Position numbers and translations under genes: made by a program
Assembly (NCBI GenBank): GCA_963724765.1
Contig: CAVRVY010000004.1
Span: 160,001 to 224,000, forward strand
From: an uncultured delta proteobacterium
Lineage (GTDB): Bacteria; Desulfobacterota; Binatia; Binatales; Binataceae
DNA length: 64,000 nucleotides
Direction: 5' to 3'
The notes under the pieces: generated by a model
The model's input: the letters and a program-made list of their open reading frames with translations, nothing else
What the model was told of the DNA's origin: nothing
The model's database searches: none
Part shown: positions 16,427-25,909 of the stretch, one piece after another
Layout of the letters: every line of letters starts with the position of its first letter
Position numbering within the stretch: the stretch's first letter is position 1

Positions 16427-16557
16427 ACGCGGGAGTCTCGCCTCCGCCGGCCCGGCGCGCATAAAGGAGGACTTTCGTCCAAAAATTCCTCTGCTGAAGG
16501 GTTGGTAAGCGCGGCGAGCCGGAATCGGTCGCCGCGCTTTTCATTCGCGGATAAGCA

Positions 16558-16585
16558 AGCAGACATAATATTTCTCACGCAACTG
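16558..16585 (-). other. dif-like Xer site B
   Basis: + strand AGCAGACATAA-TATTTC-TCACGCAACTG; same spacer as dif. Confidence 0.75.
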
Positions 16586-16587
16586 GA

Positions 16588-16615
16588 CCGAAGCGCTGGC
16601 GACGTTACGTCAACT
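16588..16615 (+). other. Inverted dif-like Xer site F
   Basis: CCGAAGCGCTG-GCGACG-TTACGTCAACT; XerD arm 10/11 to dif; lies 2 bp from site B. Confidence 0.65.
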
Positions 16616-17447
16616 ACGTTGGCGATTTTGTTGCAATCGACAGTCATTTCAAATAGGCTTGTCGAATGGCTCAGAATCTGGTCAGAGCGGCCAAGGCGAT
16701 AGCGCGAGCGACGGCGAGCCGAGTAGTAGTCCCGCTACTCGTCCACGGCGAGGTGCGCTGTGAGCCTCGCGAACCCGGATCTAGGAGAACTTGAAGTGAG
16801 GCCCTTTAACCTCCAGTACAAAGGCCCGCTTCATTCAATGCAATCGGATAAAGCTGATCGAAAAAAAGAAGTCCATGATATTCGGCGAGCGTTTCACGAC
16901 CAATTAAAGCGACCGTGGAAATCGACCGAATTGCTCCGCTTTAAGTCGCAACACGATTATCACGGGTTCCCTTATCGCGGACAGCGTTATCAATCCGGAG
17001 ATGGACGGTGGCTACCTCTTGATCTAGATTGGGCTGTTACAAAACGAACAAAAGCCGGGCGAGACATAAATTTCATTCCTTTAGTAATACGCGCTACAGG
17101 GATGGCCCTTACTTGTGAACTTGAAATGCGGATTGCCTGGCGCGAAAAGACTCAAGGTGGGATCGTTCGAGCGACCGCAGAAGGCTTCGATTTAGACAAT
17201 CGGCTTAAACACATTCTCGATGCATTGGCGATCCCACAAGACAATCAATTGCCTGACGACGTTGCGGCTGACCCGTCGCCATATTTTCTAACCTTGCTCG
17301 AAGACGACGGCTTGATAACTCGCATCGATGTAAAGGCACATCCGATTGGCTTGCCAAAGCAACCAACGGAGCTAGACGCTTATCTTGAGTGGAGTTGACC
17401 CGGTTTCGTGGACAGTGGCGGAGTGGGGAAAGTGAAGGAGAGCCACG

Positions 17448-17762
17448 ATGCCCAAGAGTCATGCACGGTATGCGCTGGAATACCGGCGCCGAATGGTGGA
17501 GCTGGCGCGGGCAGGGCGTAGTCCCGACGATCTCGCGAAGGAGTTCGAGCCGACCGCCCAGTCGATTCGCAACTGGGTGGCGCAGGCGGAGCGCGATGCG
17601 GGCCGTCGTCTTGATGGGCTGACCAGCGACGAGCGGCAGGAGCTTACCCGGCTGCGGCGTGAGAACCGGGTGCTGCGCGAAGAGCGCGAGATACTATCAA
17701 AAGCCGCGGCCTGGTTCGCGACGGAGACCGGTTCGGTGCCGTCACGGCGTTCGAATTCGTGA
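17448..17762 (+). CDS. IS3 transposase OrfA (HTH plus leucine zipper)
   Basis: YALEYRRRMVEL...SIRNWV...ELTRLRRENRVLREEREILSKAAAWF; AAAAG possible -1 slip site near 17699. Confidence 0.92.
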   Translation: MPKSHARYALEYRRRMVELARAGRSPDDLAKEFEPTAQSIRNWVAQAERDAGRRLDGLTSDERQELTRLRRENRVLREEREILSKAAAWFATETGSVPSRRSNS

Positions 17763-18643
17763 GCGCGAATCAGGCCATGTACCAGATTGCGACGATGTGC
17801 CGGGTGCTGGAGGTCTCCACCAGCGGATACTACGCGTGGTGCCAACGCTCGCCGTCCGCGCGCGCCCAGGCGGACGCGGAACTCACTTCACGGATGAACG
17901 CGATTCATGAGAGATCGTACGGGACCTACGGCGCACCGCGCATTCACGCCGAACTTGAGGCTGAAGGCATTCAAGTGGGGCGCAAGCGGGTGGCGCGGCT
18001 AATGCGCGCGGCAGGCTTGGCCGGCGTGAGCCGGCGCAAGTGGATAACCACCACGATGCGTGACCGCAATGCGCGTCCGGCGCCGGACCTGGTCGAGCGC
18101 AACTTCATGGCGCCAGGACCGAATCGGTTGTGGGTGGCTGACATCACCTATATCCCGACCTGGGCTGGTTTCCTGTATCTCGCGGTAGTGTTGGACGCCT
18201 TCAGCCGCCGGATCGTGGGCTGGGCGATGGCGACTCATCTGCGCACCGAGCTGGTGCTCGAAGCACTGAACATGGCGCTGGCGCAGCGGCGGCCCGCCGG
18301 GGTGATCCATCATTCCGACCAAGGCACACAGTACACGTCGATCGCCTTCGGGATACGTTGCCGGGAGGCCGGCGCGCGACCCTCGATGGGCTCGGTCGGT
18401 GATTGCTTCGACAATGCCATGTGCGAGAGCTTTTTCGCTACGCTCGAATGCGAGCTGCTCGACCGCCGCCGTTTCCACACCCAAGCCGAGGCGCGCATGG
18501 CGGTCTTCGAGTTCATCGAGGGCTGGTACAATCCCCATCGCCGCCACTCCGCCCTCGACTATCTGTCGCCAATCAACTACGAAAGGAGCCACGACCCAGA
18601 GGAGTCAACCGCAAGCCCTCCGCCGTCCACTGAACCGGGGTAA
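17759..18643 (+). CDS. IS3 transposase OrfB (DDE integrase core)
   Basis: WVADITY, HHSDQGTQY, DNAMCESFF motifs. Confidence 0.95.
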   Translation: MSANQAMYQIATMCRVLEVSTSGYYAWCQRSPSARAQADAELTSRMNAIHERSYGTYGAPRIHAELEAEGIQVGRKRVARLMRAAGLAGVSRRKWITTTMRDRNARPAPDLVERNFMAPGPNRLWVADITYIPTWAGFLYLAVVLDAFSRRIVGWAMATHLRTELVLEALNMALAQRRPAGVIHHSDQGTQYTSIAFGIRCREAGARPSMGSVGDCFDNAMCESFFATLECELLDRRRFHTQAEARMAVFEFIEGWYNPHRRHSALDYLSPINYERSHDPEESTASPPPSTEPG

Positions 18644-18764
18644 CTCCAGAGATCGACATTGATGTGACGGTCCAGAGCGATGCGCTCGATGATTTTTAAG
18701 CCTTTCTGAGACTCGTTGGCGCCTGTTGAGTCGCGCTTTAGTATGCTGCGCGGATGTTCGCGCC

Positions 18765-19217
18765 CTACTCCAATAAGTCCACCATTGAAGACCCTAATTG
18801 TTGGTGGATCTGCTCCCAACGTGCCGTCGCCGCAAGGAGTTTGTCGTGGGCCTTGTCGCGCTCTTTCTCAAGGTCTGTGATTTGCGTTTTCAATTCCCGC
18901 ACCGCGCTCTCGACTGATTGAACATTTTGGACGGCCGTATGGCGCGCTTGTGCTAGGCGCGCCAGTTCTGGCTCAAGTGAGGGTCTCACATTTGAAGTAG
19001 CAGTGTCACGATATTCTCGAAACTTCTGATAATTCAGTTCTGCTTTTTCTCGCAATTCGTTGACATATGGCAACGTGCCTTTCGTATTGTTCGCCTTTGT
19101 TCTTATGAGCATGAGCTGGTCGTCATATTTTTGGACGCGCTCGCTCGCTTGGATACGTTTGGCATTTTCCACTTCCAGAGCATGTTGAAGATTTTCTCTA
19201 ATGCCCACCTCGTTCAC
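18765..19217 (-). CDS. Coiled-coil passenger protein of IS1595 #1
   Basis: 150-aa heptad-rich ORF, coupled (GTGA overlap) to the upstream small ORF. Confidence 0.6.
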   Translation of the reverse strand: MNEVGIRENLQHALEVENAKRIQASERVQKYDDQLMLIRTKANNTKGTLPYVNELREKAELNYQKFREYRDTATSNVRPSLEPELARLAQARHTAVQNVQSVESAVRELKTQITDLEKERDKAHDKLLAATARWEQIHQQLGSSMVDLLE

Positions 19218-19381
19218 CTCTGCCCGATCCTTGTCTTTGGATCTGAATGAATTGCTTTTCCTAACAACTTGTCAAACTTTCCTAAGTCAATATGGCGGAT
19301 CTGCTCCCGCAGCTTGTCATCCTCTGCGCGCTGCTTTTCGCTGATCGGCTTGTGCTTTTGCCTACGCTTTTTTGTGGCCAC
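19214..19381 (-). CDS. Small basic protein downstream of transposase #1 (55 aa, not in ORF track)
   Basis: MATKKRRQKHKPISEKQRAEDDKLREQIRHIDLGKFDKLLGKAI…; homologous to 24699-24854; TAAAGT -10 box 6 nt before GTG. Confidence 0.72.
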   Translation of the reverse strand: MATKKRRQKHKPISEKQRAEDDKLREQIRHIDLGKFDKLLGKAIHSDPKTRIGQR

Positions 19382-19431
19382 GCTTGTACTTTAGCGCGGC
19401 CACGGAGCCTAGGCCATATGGTGCTTGCAAA

Positions 19432-20364
19432 CTATCCACTGCACGTTTCGACCATCGCAGCAAAGGCGTCTGCGCTGTGGCGATTGTTGTGGCGAAAGCT
19501 GAACTCATTTAGATACAGCGGCAGATAATCCTTGCTCACGTGGTGATAGGTGCCCACCACGCCACGCTTGAGCAATGCCCAGAACGATTCGATATTGTTT
19601 GTGTGAACCTCGCCGCGCACATATTCGCCGCGACCGTGATTCACAGCCTGATGCGGGATGCTTCTGTTCAGATAGCGATAGGCTTGATTTTCATCGGTCG
19701 CAACCAGTGAAACCTTGTCGCTCACAGTGCGATTAACGAAACCAGTCAGAGTTTGGGCGCCCATATCGCCAATGACCTTGGCGACGATGTTGCCCTTGCG
19801 CTCGATAGCGCCAATCACGCCGACTTTGCCGTAGCCGATGGCTTCGCCTAGAGGCTGTCGGCCTTTGGCCTTGCGTACCTGGGCGCTTTTCTTGCCGTAG
19901 TGGCGATTCCGATCCTTTCCACCGATGTAAGTTTCATCGACTTCGACTTGGCCAGTCAGCGAAAACGCATCGCCTTTCATCGCAGCACGCCAGCGATGGC
20001 AGATATACCAAGCTGTGCGCCAGTCTGTACCTGAATCCTCGCCAAACATAACGCGCCGAACCTGAAGCGAGCTAATGCCTTTCTTCGCGGTCAGCATCAT
20101 GTAGCCAATGCGAAACCAGATAACCAGTGAGACTTTGGTGTCTTGAAAAATCGTGGCTGTGGTGACGCTAAAGCGATAGCCCGCGCGCTTGCCGCAATCG
20201 GCGTTGCAGCAAGTCCAGCTAAAGGGTTTCTTTAACTTGTAGATTTTCTCCGCACGATTACAGCGAGGGCAGCGCACGCCGTTCGGCCAGCGCTTGGCGA
20301 CGATGTATTCTTTGCAGGCTTCATCGGTCGGAAACTGTTTCTCGAATAGCGCCAGTGTTTCCAT
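19432..20364 (-). CDS. IS1595-family transposase #1
   Basis: Zn ribbon (RWPNGVRCPRC), EVDETYIGG, VATDE, HTNNIESFW, YLNEFSFRHN. Confidence 0.95.
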   Translation of the reverse strand: METLALFEKQFPTDEACKEYIVAKRWPNGVRCPRCNRAEKIYKLKKPFSWTCCNADCGKRAGYRFSVTTATIFQDTKVSLVIWFRIGYMMLTAKKGISSLQVRRVMFGEDSGTDWRTAWYICHRWRAAMKGDAFSLTGQVEVDETYIGGKDRNRHYGKKSAQVRKAKGRQPLGEAIGYGKVGVIGAIERKGNIVAKVIGDMGAQTLTGFVNRTVSDKVSLVATDENQAYRYLNRSIPHQAVNHGRGEYVRGEVHTNNIESFWALLKRGVVGTYHHVSKDYLPLYLNEFSFRHNNRHSADAFAAMVETCSG

Positions 20365-20371
20365 GCTTCAG

Positions 20372-20400
20372 ATATTAGCGCTCTTTGCGTTGACTGTCAA
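20372..20400 (-). promoter_or_regulatory. sigma70-type promoter of transposase #1 (TTGACA-17-TAATAT), likely leaderless
   Basis: -35 box at TIR positions 17-22; -10 box ends 7 nt before ATG. Confidence 0.7.
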
Positions 20401-20420
20401 TACCAACAAAATAGCCACTA

Positions 20421-20449
20421 CGTAGACATAAATACTTGGAGTGCAAGTT
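20421..20449 (-). other. dif-like Xer site C (degenerate)
   Basis: + strand CGTAGACATAA-ATACTTG-GAGTGCAAGTT; XerC-side GTGCAA matches site D only with a 7-bp spacer. Confidence 0.55.
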
Positions 20450-20955
20450 CACCCTCTCAGGTCCGGAGTCGGCCTCGAAGCGGAAACCAGCAGGGAGATA
20501 AAGGCGATTACAGTTACACCAAGGATCCAAAGGGTCGCCAGCATGAATATGACCGCTTCCTCGCGGATGAGATAACCGGCAGCTGCCGCAAAGCTCGCGG
20601 CAGCGATTCCTAAGCCCATCACACTCGTAGTGGAAGAGCGAAGTATTTCAGTCCGATGTCGGGAGGTTTCGAGCACGAGACGACCGCCGCCGATGAGATG
20701 TATTAGACCAGACACTGCGTTGCAGATCTGCCATGCAATGTGCTCTTCGGATGCCAGATACACCAGCAGAAGCGCAGCGAAAAGGGACAGAAATAGAGCG
20801 CTCAGCGAGGAGTACATGAAATGAAACAGCGCCGAGGTTTGGCCCCTACCTAGACGGTGAGATCGCTCACCAAAAACAAAGACCACGCCGATGAATCCGG
20901 TCAGAGTCGCGGCCACTTGCGCGTAGGCGAGGAGAATAACCGCGTAACTACTCAT
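20449..20955 (-). CDS. Multi-pass membrane hypothetical protein, sole gene between dif-like sites C and D
   Basis: About 5 hydrophobic segments; stop codon abuts site C. Confidence 0.75.
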   Translation of the reverse strand: MSSYAVILLAYAQVAATLTGFIGVVFVFGERSHRLGRGQTSALFHFMYSSLSALFLSLFAALLLVYLASEEHIAWQICNAVSGLIHLIGGGRLVLETSRHRTEILRSSTTSVMGLGIAAASFAAAAGYLIREEAVIFMLATLWILGVTVIAFISLLVSASRPTPDLRG

Positions 20956-21000
20956 GTTGGGGTGCTAGGCTCTCTCGAAATCACGATAATTTTCGAGTCT

Positions 21001-21028
21001 GGTGAACATAATATTTCTCGTGCAACTG
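21001..21028 (-). other. dif-like Xer site D
   Basis: + strand GGTGAACATAA-TATTTC-TCGTGCAACTG; same spacer as dif; XerC arm 9/11 to site B. Confidence 0.75.
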
Positions 21029-21030
21029 CA

Positions 21031-21058
21031 AAGAAGCGGTCGCAAGATTATGTCAACT
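21031..21058 (+). other. Inverted dif-like Xer site E
   Basis: AAGAAGCGGTC-GCAAGA-TTATGTCAACT; XerD arm identical to dif; lies 2 bp from site D. Confidence 0.7.
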
Positions 21059-21084
21059 TGAATCAAGTGGCGATTATCCGGCGC

Positions 21085-21113
21085 TTGACACCGACCCAAT
21101 AAAGCGCTATTCT
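21085..21113 (+). promoter_or_regulatory. sigma70-type promoter of transposase #2 (TTGACA-17-TATTCT), likely leaderless
   Basis: -35 box at TIR positions 17-22; -10 box ends 7 nt before ATG 21121. Confidence 0.72.
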
Positions 21114-21120
21114 TTTCATC

Positions 21121-22101
21121 ATGAATACGAAGAGAAAGCCCGTTGTTCGGCAGATGCAATTGCGCGAGCTTCTGGCCCGTTTCTCGACTGAGGATGCTTG
21201 CAAAGAACACCTTGACCGAAGGCGCTGGCCGGATGGTGTGGTCAAGTGCCCGCGTTGCGGCGGCAAAGCATACCGGCTCAAGGCGCGCCCCTTCCACTAC
21301 CTGTGCAAGAGCGGCAAGCAATCGACCGATAAAGAGACCGGCGATGTCGTTACCTGCCACAAACAAAACGGCTATCGCTTCTCCGTCATCACGCGAACTG
21401 TGTTCGAGAATACGAACTACCCTCTTCGAGAATGGTTCCGGGTAATCTTCTTCATGCTGCACTCGAAGAAAGGAATGTCTGCCCATCAGATACACCGCAT
21501 GATCGGAACCGGCTCGTATGAAACCGCTTGGTATATGTGCATACGAATTCGCGCCGCAATGCGCGGCGATATGCTTTCGCTGAGCGGCATTGTAGAAGCG
21601 GACGAGACTTACATCGGCGGGAAGGATCGCAATCGACACTGGAACAAAAAGAGCCGTCAGCAACGTGAATTGGCTGGGCCACAACCGCTTGGCGAGGCCG
21701 TTGGATACGGGAAAAGCGGAGTCATCGGCGCAATCGCTCGCAAGGGTAACGTCGTCTGCCGCGTGATCGGCGATCAGGATGCTCGCACGCTTGCGGGTTT
21801 CGTTCGCAACGTCGTTGACGACAAGGTAACCCTCGTCGCGACGGACGAGAACCAAGCCTACAATTATTTGGACCGCGACATTCGCCATGAGGCGGTCAAG
21901 CACAGCGCTGGCGAATACGTGCGCGGCGAGGTCCATACGAACAACATCGAGAGTTTCTGGAGCCTTCTGAAGCGTGGCGTTGTGGGCACCTATCACAACG
22001 TGAGCAAGAAATATCTGCCGCTGTATCTGAATGAATTTTCCTTCCGATTCAACAATCGCGAGAACCCTGATATCTTCGACGCCATCCTTCGAGGATGCTG
22101 A
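21121..22101 (+). CDS. IS1595-family transposase #2
   Basis: RWPDGVVKCPRC, EADETYIGG, VATDE, HTNNIESFW, YLNEFSFRFNNR. Confidence 0.95.
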   Translation: MNTKRKPVVRQMQLRELLARFSTEDACKEHLDRRRWPDGVVKCPRCGGKAYRLKARPFHYLCKSGKQSTDKETGDVVTCHKQNGYRFSVITRTVFENTNYPLREWFRVIFFMLHSKKGMSAHQIHRMIGTGSYETAWYMCIRIRAAMRGDMLSLSGIVEADETYIGGKDRNRHWNKKSRQQRELAGPQPLGEAVGYGKSGVIGAIARKGNVVCRVIGDQDARTLAGFVRNVVDDKVTLVATDENQAYNYLDRDIRHEAVKHSAGEYVRGEVHTNNIESFWSLLKRGVVGTYHNVSKKYLPLYLNEFSFRFNNRENPDIFDAILRGC

Positions 22102-22177
22102 GTTCGCCACGCTGGCGGCGCCCTCAGCAACCGTCAAAGCCAGCGCAATTGCGGTTACCGTTTGCTGCGAGGGTGGG

Positions 22178-22453
22178 ATGGCACGGAAGAAAGCAAAACG
22201 ATCGGTTGGATCAGCTCGCGTTCCAATTTCCGATGAAAAATTGATCGCGCGCCTCCAAGAGAAAGCGCCGGAGCTATTGACTGCCAAGGTTTCGGAAGCG
22301 GCCTTTGATTCGGTCATAGACAATCTGCTTGCGGAATCGCCATCCGATGATCGTCCGCATTTCTATTGCCGCAAATGCGGGGAATATCACCTGAAAAGTC
22401 ATTTGCACTATCAACCTAGCGCCACTACGAAAACCACCCCAAAACAAGCTTGA
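22178..22453 (+). CDS. Small basic protein downstream of transposase #2, with C-terminal CxxC/His motif
   Basis: MARKKAKRS…AAFDSVIDNLL…YCRKCGEYHLKSH; GAGGG RBS before ATG 22178. Confidence 0.65.
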   Translation: MARKKAKRSVGSARVPISDEKLIARLQEKAPELLTAKVSEAAFDSVIDNLLAESPSDDRPHFYCRKCGEYHLKSHLHYQPSATTKTTPKQA

Positions 22454-23075
22454 GCGATCAAGAGAAGAAAGATTCCCCCGAACCCGCAGAGCGCGGAACG
22501 AAGGGGAGTCACCTGACGGGGCACTTCGAACTCGATCTCCCAAATCCCAACGAGGATACAACCGCAGGCGAAAGAATCAGAAATCCTTCAAGCGCCGCCT
22601 TTTTAACGACCTGCGAAACCCGCGCTTTTATATCGAAGGATTCGCTCTCATCGTTGTTGCCATCTATACCGGCTTCGCTGGATATCAATCGTGTCAGTTG
22701 GAACGCTCTACCATTGCGACCAAAGAAAGCGCTGATGCTGCGGTTGCGGCGACGCGTGCCTTGATCTTTCTCGAAGAGAAACCATTTTTCGGCAGTTATG
22801 GACCTGTATGCACTATGGGCTTGCAAAATGTCGGCAAGATTCCCGCTACTCAGATAATCGAAACGCACGAATTCAAGATCACCGCCAACGATAATGCCGT
22901 TCCGAGTTTTTCCCGATGTCCTGAAGGGAAGAAACTCCGCTTCCCGTATATCAGGCCTGATCATCCGAGAATCTTCGCAATCGCTCCACCGGTCGGAGCT
23001 TCCCAGACTCCGCCCACAGTCTGGATTCACGGCTGTATTCGCTATCGCGACTTCTTGAGCGCGCGTCTAGTTTAG
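22450..23075 (+). pseudogene. Membrane-anchored passenger protein, probably frameshifted
   Basis: The frame of the 22698-23075 ORF stays open upstream through a TM segment (FALIVVAIYTGFAGYQ) but has no start; the likely TTG start at 22450 is in another frame. Confidence 0.45.
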
Positions 23076-23240
23076 ACCCACGATCTGGTCGGTGTCGAGT
23101 ATCGGATAATCGCCCCTCAAGTGGGGACTAGGTGAATGTTGACACCCACTGAAAGTTGGCATAAAAAGAGTCGAGGACGGCTATGCAGGGAGGTTCTGCG
23201 GGCGGGGTTCCCGCCCGGTTACAAGGGCCGCGAGTGGTTT

Positions 23241-23979
23241 ATGATTCTCCACGCTTACTTTGACGAACACGGGCACGATGGATCGTCCGTATACGCCATC
23301 GCTGGTTACGTCGGGACCGATGAGCAATGGAGCACGTTCACTGAAAAGTGGAGCTCTACCCTAGAGCGTCATTATGCATTCGGCCCGTTCCACATGGTCG
23401 AGTTCGAGGCTTCAGACATAGACAAAAAGAGCCAGTTCCACGGCTGGAGCAAGGATCAAAAGGACGCGCTGGCGAAAGAGCTTTTTCCGCTCATCCCTGA
23501 CAGCGGTGTGCGCGGATTAGGCCAAGCGATACTGATGGACGCCTTTAATGGCCTTTCGGAGAATGCACAGCAACGGTTACGCGATCCTTATTGGGGTCTG
23601 CTTCCACAACTGTATCGAACGACTACTGAAGGACATTCCAGAGGACGACAAGGTTGATTTGGTTTTTGATCGCAAAGACAAATACACTGGCGAAGCGCTG
23701 GATCGCTATAGATTTCTCAAGGATGACTGGCTGCCGCCTGCACAGGCGAAAAAGCTAGTGGGTTGTGCATTCAGAGACGACGATATCATTATTCCGCTAC
23801 AAGCAGCGGACGTTCTCGTTTATGAAACCGGCAAATTATTTGAGAACGCCTTTCGTAGGCCAGATTTATCGGAGAGAAAGTCACTGCAAGTTCTCCGTGC
23901 GCGACAAAACGTACAAATCGGAGTCTGGGACAGGGATAATCTTGCCGCAGAGTTTAAAAAATACAACTCCCTACTCTAG
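23241..23979 (+). pseudogene. DUF3800-like protein with a +1 frameshift at a G4 run (23593-23596)
   Basis: AYFDEHG N-terminal and PLQAADVLVY C-terminal motifs in different frames; removing one G joins DPYW|VCFHNC; start may lie further upstream. Confidence 0.7.
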
Positions 23980-24179
23980 CCACTGCTGGTAAGACACGCC
24001 CAAAAAATAGCGGCGACCACCGCGACGGCGCCTAAAACCAGCGGAATCGCACAGCCGATAAGGCCGAGCGCATCGCCCACTCCCATCGGGCCGGGATGGC
24101 TTTGGCCGCAATGTGGGCAGACCTTCGCTTTCTCTGAAACAGGCGCGTGGCAGGTTTTGCAGTTGACCAGAGCGGCCAC
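23976..24179 (-). CDS. Small zinc-ribbon plus TM passenger protein
   Basis: CKTC...CPHCG followed by a hydrophobic helix. Confidence 0.65.
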   Translation of the reverse strand: MAALVNCKTCHAPVSEKAKVCPHCGQSHPGPMGVGDALGLIGCAIPLVLGAVAVVAAIFWACLTSSG

Positions 24180-24185
24180 GAACGT

Positions 24186-24674
24186 TCAACGGCCGAAGCG
24201 GCATACATTAGAAATCAGGCGCTGAGAGATGTCCTCGCACGACGTGTAGGTTGAGCCATCATCACAATCAAATCGTAGTTCATCGTTCTCAGCGACCTTG
24301 ATAGCGAGATATCTGGCATCAACGCGCCTATAAGACGCGAGGGGACCGTACAGCCGAGATTCGACAATACTGATGTATCGCCCAGCATTGCTGAATTCTA
24401 CTTCAATTTTTACATAAGGCAGTCGAGCGGTTGCGGTTAATACAAACTTCGTATCGCTGAGCTCTAGAAATGCGCAATGGCATTCTGGGTTCGCCTTAAG
24501 TTCTCGGCGAAGCTTTTCTGAATCGATAGAGATTCGATGCTTCAACGAATCCCAAAAAAGCGGCGCCTTGGCGGCAATAATAGCGGCGTTGTGTAGGCGC
24601 AGCCTGTCTCGAATGATCGCCCGTTCGTCTTGCTCGCGTTGCTGGCTCTTTAGTGTCTCTATCCAGTCGCTCAT
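24186..24674 (-). CDS. Hypothetical passenger protein of IS1595 #3
   Basis: Open frame co-oriented with transposase operon; no recognised motif. Confidence 0.55.
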   Translation of the reverse strand: MSDWIETLKSQQREQDERAIIRDRLRLHNAAIIAAKAPLFWDSLKHRISIDSEKLRRELKANPECHCAFLELSDTKFVLTATARLPYVKIEVEFSNAGRYISIVESRLYGPLASYRRVDARYLAIKVAENDELRFDCDDGSTYTSCEDISQRLISNVCRFGR

Positions 24675-24698
24675 AGTTCCATCCGCCACCACGTCTTT

Positions 24699-24854
24699 TC
24701 ATTTAGCCCCTTCCCGAGAACGGAAAAGTGGCTTGATGGCCCGCTTGAATTTCTCAGGGTCGGCGTACGCGAGTTCCTGTCTTAGGCGCTCGTCTTCGGC
24801 GCGCGTTTTCTCTTTCAACCTGCTTGGCTGCTTCGATTTGGTCTTGCGAGGCAC
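24699..24854 (-). CDS. Small basic protein downstream of transposase #3 (51 aa, not in ORF track)
   Basis: MPRKTKSKQPSRLKEKTRAEDERLRQELAYADPEKFKRAIKPLF…; shares EKxRAEDxxLR……DxxKF with 19214-19381; TATGCT -10 box 6 nt before GTG. Confidence 0.72.
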   Translation of the reverse strand: MPRKTKSKQPSRLKEKTRAEDERLRQELAYADPEKFKRAIKPLFRSREGAK

Positions 24855-24886
24855 GCTGAAAGCATAGCGCTTTCAAATCGCGCCGG

Positions 24887-25825
24887 CTACTGAGCGCACG
24901 TCGTAATCAAGTCGGCAAACATGTTCTCGTTCTTTCGATTGTTAAAGCGATAGCTGAATTCGTTCAAATAGAAGGGCAGATACTTCTTGCTGACGTTATG
25001 GTAGTTGCCGACGATTCCGCGCTTCAGCAACGCCCAGAACGATTCGATTGAGTTTGTGTGAACGTTGCCGCGCACGTATTCGCCGCGCGCGTGGCTCACG
25101 GCCTGATGCGGCATGCCTGCGCGAACAAACTTATAAGCTGGATTCTCGTCAGTCGCGACGAGCGTAACTTTCTCGTCTGTGGCGCGGCGCACGAATGAAC
25201 CGAGAGTAGGAGCATCCATCGAGCCGATAACGCGGGCCACGACGTTGCCCTTGCGCTCGATAGCCCCGATCACGCCGACCTTCCCGAATCCAACGGCCTC
25301 GCCAAGCCGTTGCGCGCCCTTGGCCTTGCGTACCTGGGCGCTCTTTTTGTTCTTGTGACGATTGCGGTCTTTCCCGCCGATATAAGTCTCGTCAACCTCG
25401 ACTTCGCCGCTCAGTGGACGGTACATATCGCCAGCCATCGCAGCGCGCCAGCGCATGCACATGAACCAGCTTGTGTGATAGTCGTGCGTGGAATTCTCGC
25501 CAAACATCACGCGATGAATCTGAAGCGCACTCATGCCTTTCTTTGAAGTCAGCATCAGATAGCCGACCTTAAACCAAAGATCGAGCGGCTTCTTTGTATT
25601 CTCGAAGATCGTTCCGCTGATGACCGAGAACCGAAAGCCCTGACGCTTGCCGCAATCCTCGTTCTTGCAGACCCAATGAAAGGGCCGCGCCTTGAGCGCG
25701 TAGACCTTTTCCTTGCGATCGCAGCGGGGGCAGCGCACGCCGTCCGGCCAGCGCATTTGAACCAGAAAGCGACGGCATTGCTCGTCGGTTCCAAACTCTC
25801 TATCGAAGTCGCCGATGGTCTGCAT
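24887..25825 (-). CDS. IS1595-family transposase #3
   Basis: RWPDGVRCPRC, EVDETYIGG, VATDE, HTNSIESFW, YLNEFSYRFNNR; start placed at ATG 25825. Confidence 0.95.
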   Translation of the reverse strand: MQTIGDFDREFGTDEQCRRFLVQMRWPDGVRCPRCDRKEKVYALKARPFHWVCKNEDCGKRQGFRFSVISGTIFENTKKPLDLWFKVGYLMLTSKKGMSALQIHRVMFGENSTHDYHTSWFMCMRWRAAMAGDMYRPLSGEVEVDETYIGGKDRNRHKNKKSAQVRKAKGAQRLGEAVGFGKVGVIGAIERKGNVVARVIGSMDAPTLGSFVRRATDEKVTLVATDENPAYKFVRAGMPHQAVSHARGEYVRGNVHTNSIESFWALLKRGIVGNYHNVSKKYLPFYLNEFSYRFNNRKNENMFADLITTCAQ

Positions 25826-25831
25826 GCTCAA

Positions 25832-25860
25832 AGAATAGCGCTAAACGAGACGAGTGTCAA
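25832..25860 (-). promoter_or_regulatory. sigma70-type promoter of transposase #3 (TTGACA-17-TATTCT), likely leaderless
   Basis: -35 box at TIR positions 17-22; -10 box ends 6 nt before ATG. Confidence 0.72.
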
Positions 25861-25881
25861 CATTCACCTAGTCCCCCCTCA

Positions 25882-25909
25882 AGTTGACATAATATTTCTT
25901 ATGCGAAGC
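25882..25909 (-). other. dif: Chromosomal dif site (XerC/XerD recombination site)
   Basis: GCTTCGCATAA-GAAATA-TTATGTCAACT versus E. coli GGTGCGCATAA-TGTATA-TTATGTTAAAT (9/11 in each arm); intergenic; KOPS-like motifs converge on it. Confidence 0.9.

Follow-up and report, generated by a model that had tools for sequence, protein, structure and literature searches.

The window analysed here is a 64,000-nucleotide (nt) stretch of contig CAVRVY010000004.1 (positions 160,001 to 224,000 of the forward strand, assembly GCA_963724765.1) from an uncultured delta proteobacterium of the Binataceae. It holds three insertion sequence (IS) elements of the IS1595 family, numbered 1 to 3 in the following, and directly behind the transposase gene of elements 1 and 3 lies a short gene for a small basic protein. 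This is almost certainly a real, element-linked gene, and by its sequence it belongs to a so far undescribed family of proteins of ~45-60 residues without a match in Pfam, NCBIfam or PADLOC. We read the product as a factor that the element encodes, that binds nucleic acid and that assists or regulates transposition, a proposal that, when the reality of the gene and its role are taken together, has about an even chance of being right. The small gene is the second conserved gene of a cargo-carrying IS1595 lineage in Binataceae soil bacteria. PMC8101967 describes the IS1595 family with a single transposase gene, yet here a whole lineage in an uncultured soil phylum keeps the gene for a small basic protein and swaps everything else, which makes a candidate accessory factor visible and testable.

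The small gene and its conservation

A preliminary description of this DNA had proposed two related open reading frames (ORFs), each with a -10-like box 6 nt before a GTG start, and all of these features were found as described:

19214-19381, minus strand: small basic protein gene of element 1 (55 amino acids (aa), GTG start, 50 nt past the transposase stop)
19388-19393, minus strand: -10-like hexamer of the 55-aa gene, 6 nt before the GTG
24699-24854, minus strand: small basic protein gene of element 3 (51 aa, GTG start, 32 nt past the transposase stop)
24861-24866, minus strand: -10-like hexamer of the 51-aa gene, 6 nt before the GTG

The proposed kinship of the two proteins was confirmed by an identity of 35% over 34 residues (pairwise E 4e-7), and the family profile scores the 55-aa protein (row L002) at E 4e-22. 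A search of a 5.8-billion-protein collection with the 51-aa protein returned 44 homologues of 39-77 aa at E ≤ 0.01, all of them unnamed or called "hypothetical". A 29-member profile reached 131 representative clusters at E ≤ 1e-3, of which 26 remained at E ≤ 1e-10; with few exceptions, the proteins are 35-100 aa long. Residues R18, D21, L24, R25, D32 and K35 are invariant in the 46-row alignment, and K16 is likewise counted among the invariant residues of the 51-aa protein.

Codon analysis covered the 435 pairs formed by 30 core sequences of the window and of related genomes, and the ratio of nonsynonymous to synonymous substitution rates (dN/dS) could be computed for 290 of these. Across the 435 pairs of small-protein genes, the differences at codon positions 1, 2 and 3 numbered 3939, 2836 and 6504, respectively. 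The median dN/dS was 0.21 in frame, compared with 0.92 and 1.40 when the frame was shifted by one or two bases. This frame-specific substitution pattern indicates that the small-protein sequence evolves as a protein. It argues against the alternative that the ORFs are not functional proteins and that the conservation reflects DNA or RNA signals at the 3' flank of the transposase gene, or chance ORFs. The very short length, the lack of a known domain and the moderate fold confidence fit that alternative, but the reach of the protein profile to 131 clusters, the conserved start codon and promoter-like box, and the alternative protein types that fill the same slot (see below) all speak against it, and we consider its probability to be close to nil.

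An AlphaFold2 model of the 51-aa protein, computed with the family alignment, has a disordered Lys/Arg tail at residues 1-14 and then a two-helix hairpin (residues 15-29 and 33-47) that bears conserved charged residues, with a mean predicted local distance difference test score (pLDDT) of 70. Profile searches of solved structures with the small proteins gave nothing below E 0.27, and the ESM Atlas returned only unnamed clusters with scores ≤ 0.88. NitrOD5 was matched in 9 of the 29 first-family members, all below the cut-off (best E 0.0026), and the likeness was treated as compositional.

The -10-like box is conserved in homologues. The motif TANNNT stands 5-7 nt ahead of the called start in 34 of 37 distinct loci; two of the three remaining loci have mis-called starts (one with a box 6 nt before a nearby GTG), and the third has its box 9 nt upstream. 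GTG is the start codon in 25 of the 37 loci, ATG in 10 and TTG in 2. The combination of this motif and a start codon occurs 35 times in the 5.4-Mb genome, six of these at IS1595 copies. The transposase gene has a promoter within the terminal repeat, with the pattern TTGACA-17-nt-TA...T and a -10 that ends 6-7 nt before the ATG in all three elements:

25832-25860 (element 3), 21085-21113 (element 2), 20372-20400 (element 1): sigma-70-like promoter in the transposase-proximal repeat, 10/12 match

Because the -10 box is placed for transcription to begin at the start codon, the sequence suggests leaderless mRNA both for the transposase gene and, in most members, for the small gene. The corresponding gene of element 2, which encodes 91 aa, has a purine-rich, Shine-Dalgarno-like stretch before its ATG and not a -10 box.

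The linkage of the small gene to the transposase was assessed in two samples, both drawn from one bacterial family. A small-protein-anchored scan with one genome per species gave 29 loci, nearly all from Candidatus Binataceae/Binatus or from metagenome-assembled genomes labelled "uncultured delta proteobacterium". A transposase-anchored sample, which covered the window's genome together with 80 others of its family, yielded 79 distinct full-length copies. Loci of genomes flagged as unpublished were left out; genome tallies include such genomes, and locus-level claims do not. Since kin are not independent, we give counts rather than tests.

In 23 of the 29 small-protein loci, a same-strand IS1595 transposase gene ends just upstream; a remnant of one was found in a single locus, and none was adjacent in five. 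The small gene typically follows 30-50 nt after the transposase stop. Among the 27 copies at least 60% identical to the transposase of element 3, the first family (that of the 51- and 55-aa proteins) is present in 26 and the 91-aa type in one, which is element 2. Eleven of the 52 more distant copies match the first-family profile and seven match the second. In a quick maximum-likelihood tree, the small-protein type tracks the transposase clade, with 37 of 38 rows in one clade (support 93). The preliminary description had seen the gene as behaving like core machinery of the element, and its presence beside the transposase in 23 of 29 loci and in 26 of the 27 closest copies, while the cargo varies, bears this out. 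Two identical 2.27-kb elements in the window's genome both have an intact small ORF, so recently active copies keep the gene.

One locus is common to four related species (L015 (= L072), L016, L018 and L019); its upstream sequence is almost the same in all of them, and a transposase-proximal repeat could not be recognised. Three of the four have a frameshifted or truncated transposase gene, and the small ORF is intact in every one. This locus looks like an immobilised, vertically inherited copy.

Other small proteins in the slot and the variable cargo

Element 2 has a positional equivalent of the small gene:

22178-22453, plus strand: gene for a 91-aa protein of a second family, 76 nt past the transposase stop

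With 58 homologues, the 91-aa protein represents another conserved family, in which a basic N-terminus and helices precede a C-terminal zinc knuckle with invariant H61, C64, C67, H71 and H77. Among its matches is the window's own entry (P0045), while no identical entry was found among the matches of the 51-aa protein. In the structural model, a tail is followed by three helices, and the knuckle takes the form of a beta hairpin (mean pLDDT 75); a Foldseek search of this model against the PDB gave no match at E ≤ 0.001. The weaker similarity to the first family that had been noted before was recovered at a borderline level, over 34 N-terminal columns only (hhalign probability 49%, E 1.7e-4). All six full-length matches of the 91-aa type sit 80-136 nt behind an IS1595 transposase or its remnant, and 20 of the 28 loci in a 91-aa-anchored sample have an IS1595 transposase.

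The slot behind the transposase was further analysed by single-linkage clustering over the 79 transposase-anchored copies. In 42 of these, the slot holds the first family, with which single linkage groups variants that have lost all but the second helix and end in a basic tail at the C-terminus. A third small-protein type (type C) was found in eight copies. Zinc-knuckle or 91-aa-type proteins occupy the slot in another eight; apart from the first family and the third type, the clustering gave five copies with a short zinc knuckle and a basic tail. A search with the 91-aa profile added seven copies with a convergent zinc-knuckle ORF on the opposite strand, 134-149 nt from the transposase end. 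Judged by their predicted make-up, sister clades hold analogous small basic proteins in the slot: some combine a helix module with a basic tail at the C-terminus, others have a zinc knuckle and a basic tail (in some cases encoded on the opposite strand), and in others, such as element 2, both modules are fused.

The cargo beyond the small gene was confirmed to differ between elements. Related elements measure ~1.6-3.5 kb, and every relative bounded by inverted repeats (IRs) has at least ~0.66 kb beyond the transposase. In 31 IR-bounded related elements, 53 ORFs of at least 150 aa fell into 42 clusters, the largest with six members; overlaps between opposite strands are frequent among these ORFs, and some of them are therefore spurious. 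Pfam matches among the cargo were DUF3800 (6 elements, e.g. L026, L038-L040, L052 and L096), PIN (one ORF, in L082) and an AAA_15/AAA_21 ATPase beside DUF3226 (L041). The recognisable passenger genes of related elements resemble defence or abortive-infection-type genes, and most passenger genes are without any family. The cargo gene of element 3 was considered as a DUF3800 candidate and rejected, as it showed no significant pairwise similarity to a DUF3800 cargo protein.

These data also bear on the alternative that the function of the small protein concerns the cargo or the interface with the host and not transposition, either as a regulator or leader of the passenger genes or as a counter-silencing or nucleoid-associated factor for low-GC foreign DNA. 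We regard this as unlikely. In its favour, the small gene has a promoter-like signal separate from that of the transposase; the stop of the 55-aa gene overlaps the GTG start of the next ORF (18765-19217), and in both element 1 and element 3 the small gene touches or overlaps the ORF that comes next on the same strand. All IR-bounded relatives hold the additional ~0.66 kb or more, and the elements form a visible low-GC island. The four related genomes mentioned above keep the small ORF intact, with the transposase frameshifted or truncated in three. However, by our own estimate from this 3/4 decay rate, a 150-nt ORF would survive beside a decayed 940-nt gene by chance in ~40% of cases. The cargo is moreover highly variable (42 clusters among 53 ORFs), which makes a cargo-specific regulator unlikely. 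In several elements (L039, L041, L058 and L079), the genes that come after the small gene run in the opposite direction, and this, together with the unrelated cargo and the opposite-strand variants, argues against a mere cargo leader.

Possible role and comparison with known systems

That the role of the small protein lies in transposition or its control is, taken by itself, a tentative assignment that we place somewhat below an even chance. An accessory-factor role is deduced from a selected, element-linked gene, a basic tail with a small structured module, the modular alternatives in the slot, and the independent orientation of the gene in some clades. According to this proposal, the basic tail would bind nucleic acid and the small protein would work with the transposase at the element ends. 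One option is that it regulates the promoter inside the terminal repeat; all three elements have their transposase promoter there, where a protein bound to the repeat could control it. Another option is that it acts as an architectural or chaperone-like helper of transpososome assembly. The small protein would not be a dif- or XerD-specific adaptor.

Several points weigh against an accessory role in transposition. Binding of the small protein to DNA or to the transposase is conjectural; no known domain was found in it, and no Pfam, NCBIfam or PADLOC family scored above threshold for the small proteins. No small ORF was detected in some cargo-carrying relatives (e.g. L078, L084, L097 and L112), and the gene is thus not indispensable in cis. 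Eight of nine distant plasmid-borne IS1595 copies (31-38% identity) are without a comparable ORF, which makes the gene a feature of the lineage and not a family-wide requirement. Co-inheritance in one mobile unit would also give the observed clade pattern without functional interaction. Two gene calls (P0157 and P0164) fuse the C-terminus of the transposase to the small protein; these are rare (2 among 8000 candidates scored), may be artefacts and were not counted as Rosetta-stone evidence. Finally, the position of the small gene against the next same-strand ORF in elements 1 and 3 also fits a role in cargo expression.

Outside the Binataceae, an unannotated 60-aa ORF overlaps the stop codon of an IS1595 transposase by 4 nt on the Methylocystis rosea plasmid pGW6_1 (L114, transposase at locus positions 1459-2376). 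By eye, it has a similar helix motif followed by a basic, proline-rich tail, and the slot behind the transposase may therefore serve outside the Binataceae too. A tblastn search of the plasmid collection with the 51-aa protein gave no match. Routine annotation misses the family, as there is no Pfam, NCBIfam or PADLOC model for it and the sole comparable ORF on a RefSeq plasmid is unannotated.

A more far-reaching version of the accessory-factor proposal, which is speculative and in our view improbable, is a two-component system. The small protein, whether of helix-hairpin, zinc-knuckle or fused type, would be an obligatory nucleic-acid-chaperone-like subunit, by which the transposase recognises or opens hairpin-forming targets (dif and REP-like palindromes, see below) and carries kilobases of cargo. 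If this were true, the interchangeable small-protein types would be modular solutions to one task.

The elements share with the IS1595 family a transposase with a zinc ribbon and a DDE_Tnp_IS1595 domain, terminal repeats that start with GG, and 8-bp target duplications. They also resemble passenger-carrying IS1595 members ("transporter IS") in having extra genes between the transposase and the far end. ISNwi1 and ISNha5 are names of IS1595 subgroups. The elements differ from the family in that most members of the lineage have a conserved small gene after the transposase and in that many of them insert at a fixed distance from dif. With a small ORF and cargo they also depart from the single ORF by which the family is characterised in PMC8101967.

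Small basic regulators are known from other IS families. InsA of IS1 and OrfA of IS911/IS3 are encoded upstream and share the N-terminal DNA-binding domain of the transposase via frameshifting; such regulators bind the terminal repeats and repress the transposase promoter. The present proteins are likewise small, basic and element-encoded, the transposase promoter lies in the repeat, and some variants have a zinc knuckle. In contrast to InsA and OrfA, they have a gene of their own that lies beyond the transposase stop and in some cases runs in the opposite direction, and a comparison of the small-protein profile with the transposase alignment revealed no similarity (hhalign probability 0.07%).

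dif, REP-like palindromes and the low-GC island

The three elements of the window stand in an array at the chromosomal dif site:

25882-25909, minus strand: chromosomal dif, 28 nt (XerC arm, 6-nt centre, XerD arm)

No other site in the 5.4-Mb genome matches with 7 mismatches or fewer, and this one lies at the cumulative GC-skew maximum of the contig (180 kb; the window starts at 160 kb). The terminal repeat of element 3 begins 5 nt beyond the XerD arm, and the window elements in general are inserted 4-5 nt beyond this arm. When the flanks of related loci were searched for dif motifs (1.5-2.5 kb per locus), the same geometry was found in 5 of the 22 loci examined from the small-protein-anchored scan. 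Among the 79 copies of the transposase-anchored sample, ten have dif at the transposase-proximal end, and 15 have a dif motif anywhere in the examined locus, including distal ends and tandem arrays. The terminal repeat typically begins 3-6 nt beyond the XerD arm in such dif-side copies. Related dif-side loci are L021-L023, L026, L027, L044, L047, L052, L055, L065 and L073. The IS1595 lineage thus contains genuine dif-side insertions, and their position suggests a dif-hunting behaviour on the XerD side. A literature search found no paper linking IS1595 to dif; the papers that hold both terms concern other matters.

The preliminary description had suggested that the small protein might bridge the transposase to XerD or dif and so direct insertion beside dif, by analogy to XafT. 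XafT of the TLC satellite phage, as described in PMC6744903, consists of an XRE helix-turn-helix (HTH) and a DUF3653 domain and activates XerD without FtsK, acting through DUF3653. Both XafT and the present proteins are small factors encoded by elements at dif, and several observations fit the proposed bridge. All three window copies are arrayed at a true dif, at least 15 transposase-anchored copies and 5 of 22 small-protein-anchored loci stand beside a dif motif, and the dif hunters of the IS1202 family have been proposed to touch a dif-bound Xer protein directly (PMC10132070).

Nevertheless, the bridge is very improbable. DUF3653 was found in none of the 29 first-family and none of the 53 second-family members at E ≤ 1 (Pfam), nor at E ≤ 0.01 in the proteins of the window, and the small protein differs from XafT in having neither DUF3653 nor an HTH. 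Moreover, the first family is just as frequent at sites without dif: in the flanks examined, a dif motif is absent from about half of the 27 closest copies and from the great majority of the wider family. The preliminary description had itself named such a distribution as one that would refute its proposal. One relative has three family-bearing copies dispersed on a single 3.4-Mb contig with no dif motif nearby. As there is one chromosomal dif per genome, the family is not confined to dif. Six family-bearing loci stand beside palindromes that resemble repetitive extragenic palindromic (REP) sequences, and one protein subtype occurs both at dif (L044 and L073) and at REP-like sites (L036-L040). 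Conversely, the same distance to the XerD arm is found in copies with other small proteins, namely type C (L080), a convergent zinc knuckle (L066) and the 91-aa type (element 2), and in one copy in which no small protein was detected (L078). With dif-side copies that carry other types or none detected, and with the family present away from dif, target choice does not track the small protein. Of the earlier interpretation, the part that made the gene a conserved core component of the element stands, while a link to XerD or dif is not supported; its broader option, a gene that regulates or helps transposition, is the one we favour. Without the XerD-adaptor idea, the role of the small protein and the way in which the elements find the XerD side of dif become separate, independently testable questions.

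Other mobile elements are also associated with dif. The IS1202 family (ISAjo2 group) comprises dif/pdif hunters with a TnsB-like transposase of 441-457 aa, 5-bp duplications and insertion 5 bp from the XerC arm, and according to PMC10132070 they encode no further protein. The present elements resemble them in being DDE-type IS at a fixed distance of a few bp from one dif arm. This resemblance is one of behaviour only, as the elements described here have an IS1595-type transposase (310-326 aa in the window) and 8-bp duplications and insert on the XerD-arm side. TLC, as presented in PMC6744903, is moved by Xer recombination, whereas the present elements rely on a DDE transposase and have repeats and target duplications. 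The same features set them apart from IMEX elements, which have no transposase and integrate by XerCD recombination between dif and a dif-like site of their own, without target duplication.

The C/T-rich REP-like palindromes of L036-L041 lie 100 nt upstream of the transposase, and their 3' arm runs into the GGGG of the terminal repeat. Such a palindrome may be a second, hairpin-type target. Within the window, a 53-nt repeat (79% identical) is present at 16556-16615 and 20999-21058 and contains a degenerate reverse dif followed by a good XerD arm; the stretch at 20420-20447 belongs to the same observation. When the elements were removed in silico, the junctions were near-perfect palindromes of two tail-to-tail XerD arms. 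On a metagenome contig of run X3, position 20416 is joined to 21056, with 639 nt skipped. The degenerate-dif repeats and palindromic junctions may reflect Xer-mediated modules, as in pdif modules, or the structure of the target.

The three elements make up a low-GC island at ~16.6-25.9 kb of the window, with a GC content of 0.52-0.57 compared with ~0.65 around it. The elements themselves have a GC content of ~52%, compared with 65% for the host genome. Their positions and those of their transposase genes are as follows:

16620-20417, minus strand: element 1, 37-nt terminal IRs (78%), flanking 8-mers match at 7/8
19432-20364, minus strand: IS1595-family transposase of element 1, zinc ribbon and DDE domain
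21066-23117, plus strand: element 2, 31-nt terminal IRs (84%), flanking 8-mers match at 6/8
21121-22101, plus strand: IS1595-family transposase of element 2, zinc ribbon and DDE domain
23120-25879, minus strand: element 3, 26-nt terminal IRs (96% complementary), perfect 8-bp target duplication
24887-25831, minus strand: IS1595-family transposase of element 3, zinc ribbon and DDE_Tnp_IS1595

All three transposases match DDE_Tnp_IS1595 (PF12762, E 4e-38 to 6e-41) and an N-terminal zinc ribbon (PF12760, E 1e-8 to 1e-11); NF033547 was matched at E 1e-50. The terminal repeats of all three elements begin with GG, and these repeats and the 8-bp duplication place the elements in the IS1595 family. A programmed in-frame TGA had been suspected in transposases of 52-56% identity and was rejected, as the translated copies show no internal stop; most likely, the alignment simply ran past the normal TGA stop codon of the gene.

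At its far end, element 3 has a cargo gene that a frameshift divides into ORFs 23136-23657 and 23548-23979. Contigs of runs X1 and X2 have one base fewer at 23593, giving a one-base frame difference, and the frameshift at this position is either an assembly error or a recent mutation. In element 1, an IS3-family element is nested at ~17387-18648, with an HTH_Tnp_1 ORF (17448-17762) and an rve ORF (17759-18643). A metagenome contig of run X3 joins position 17386 to 18649 across it, and a form of element 1 without the nested IS3-family element thus exists.

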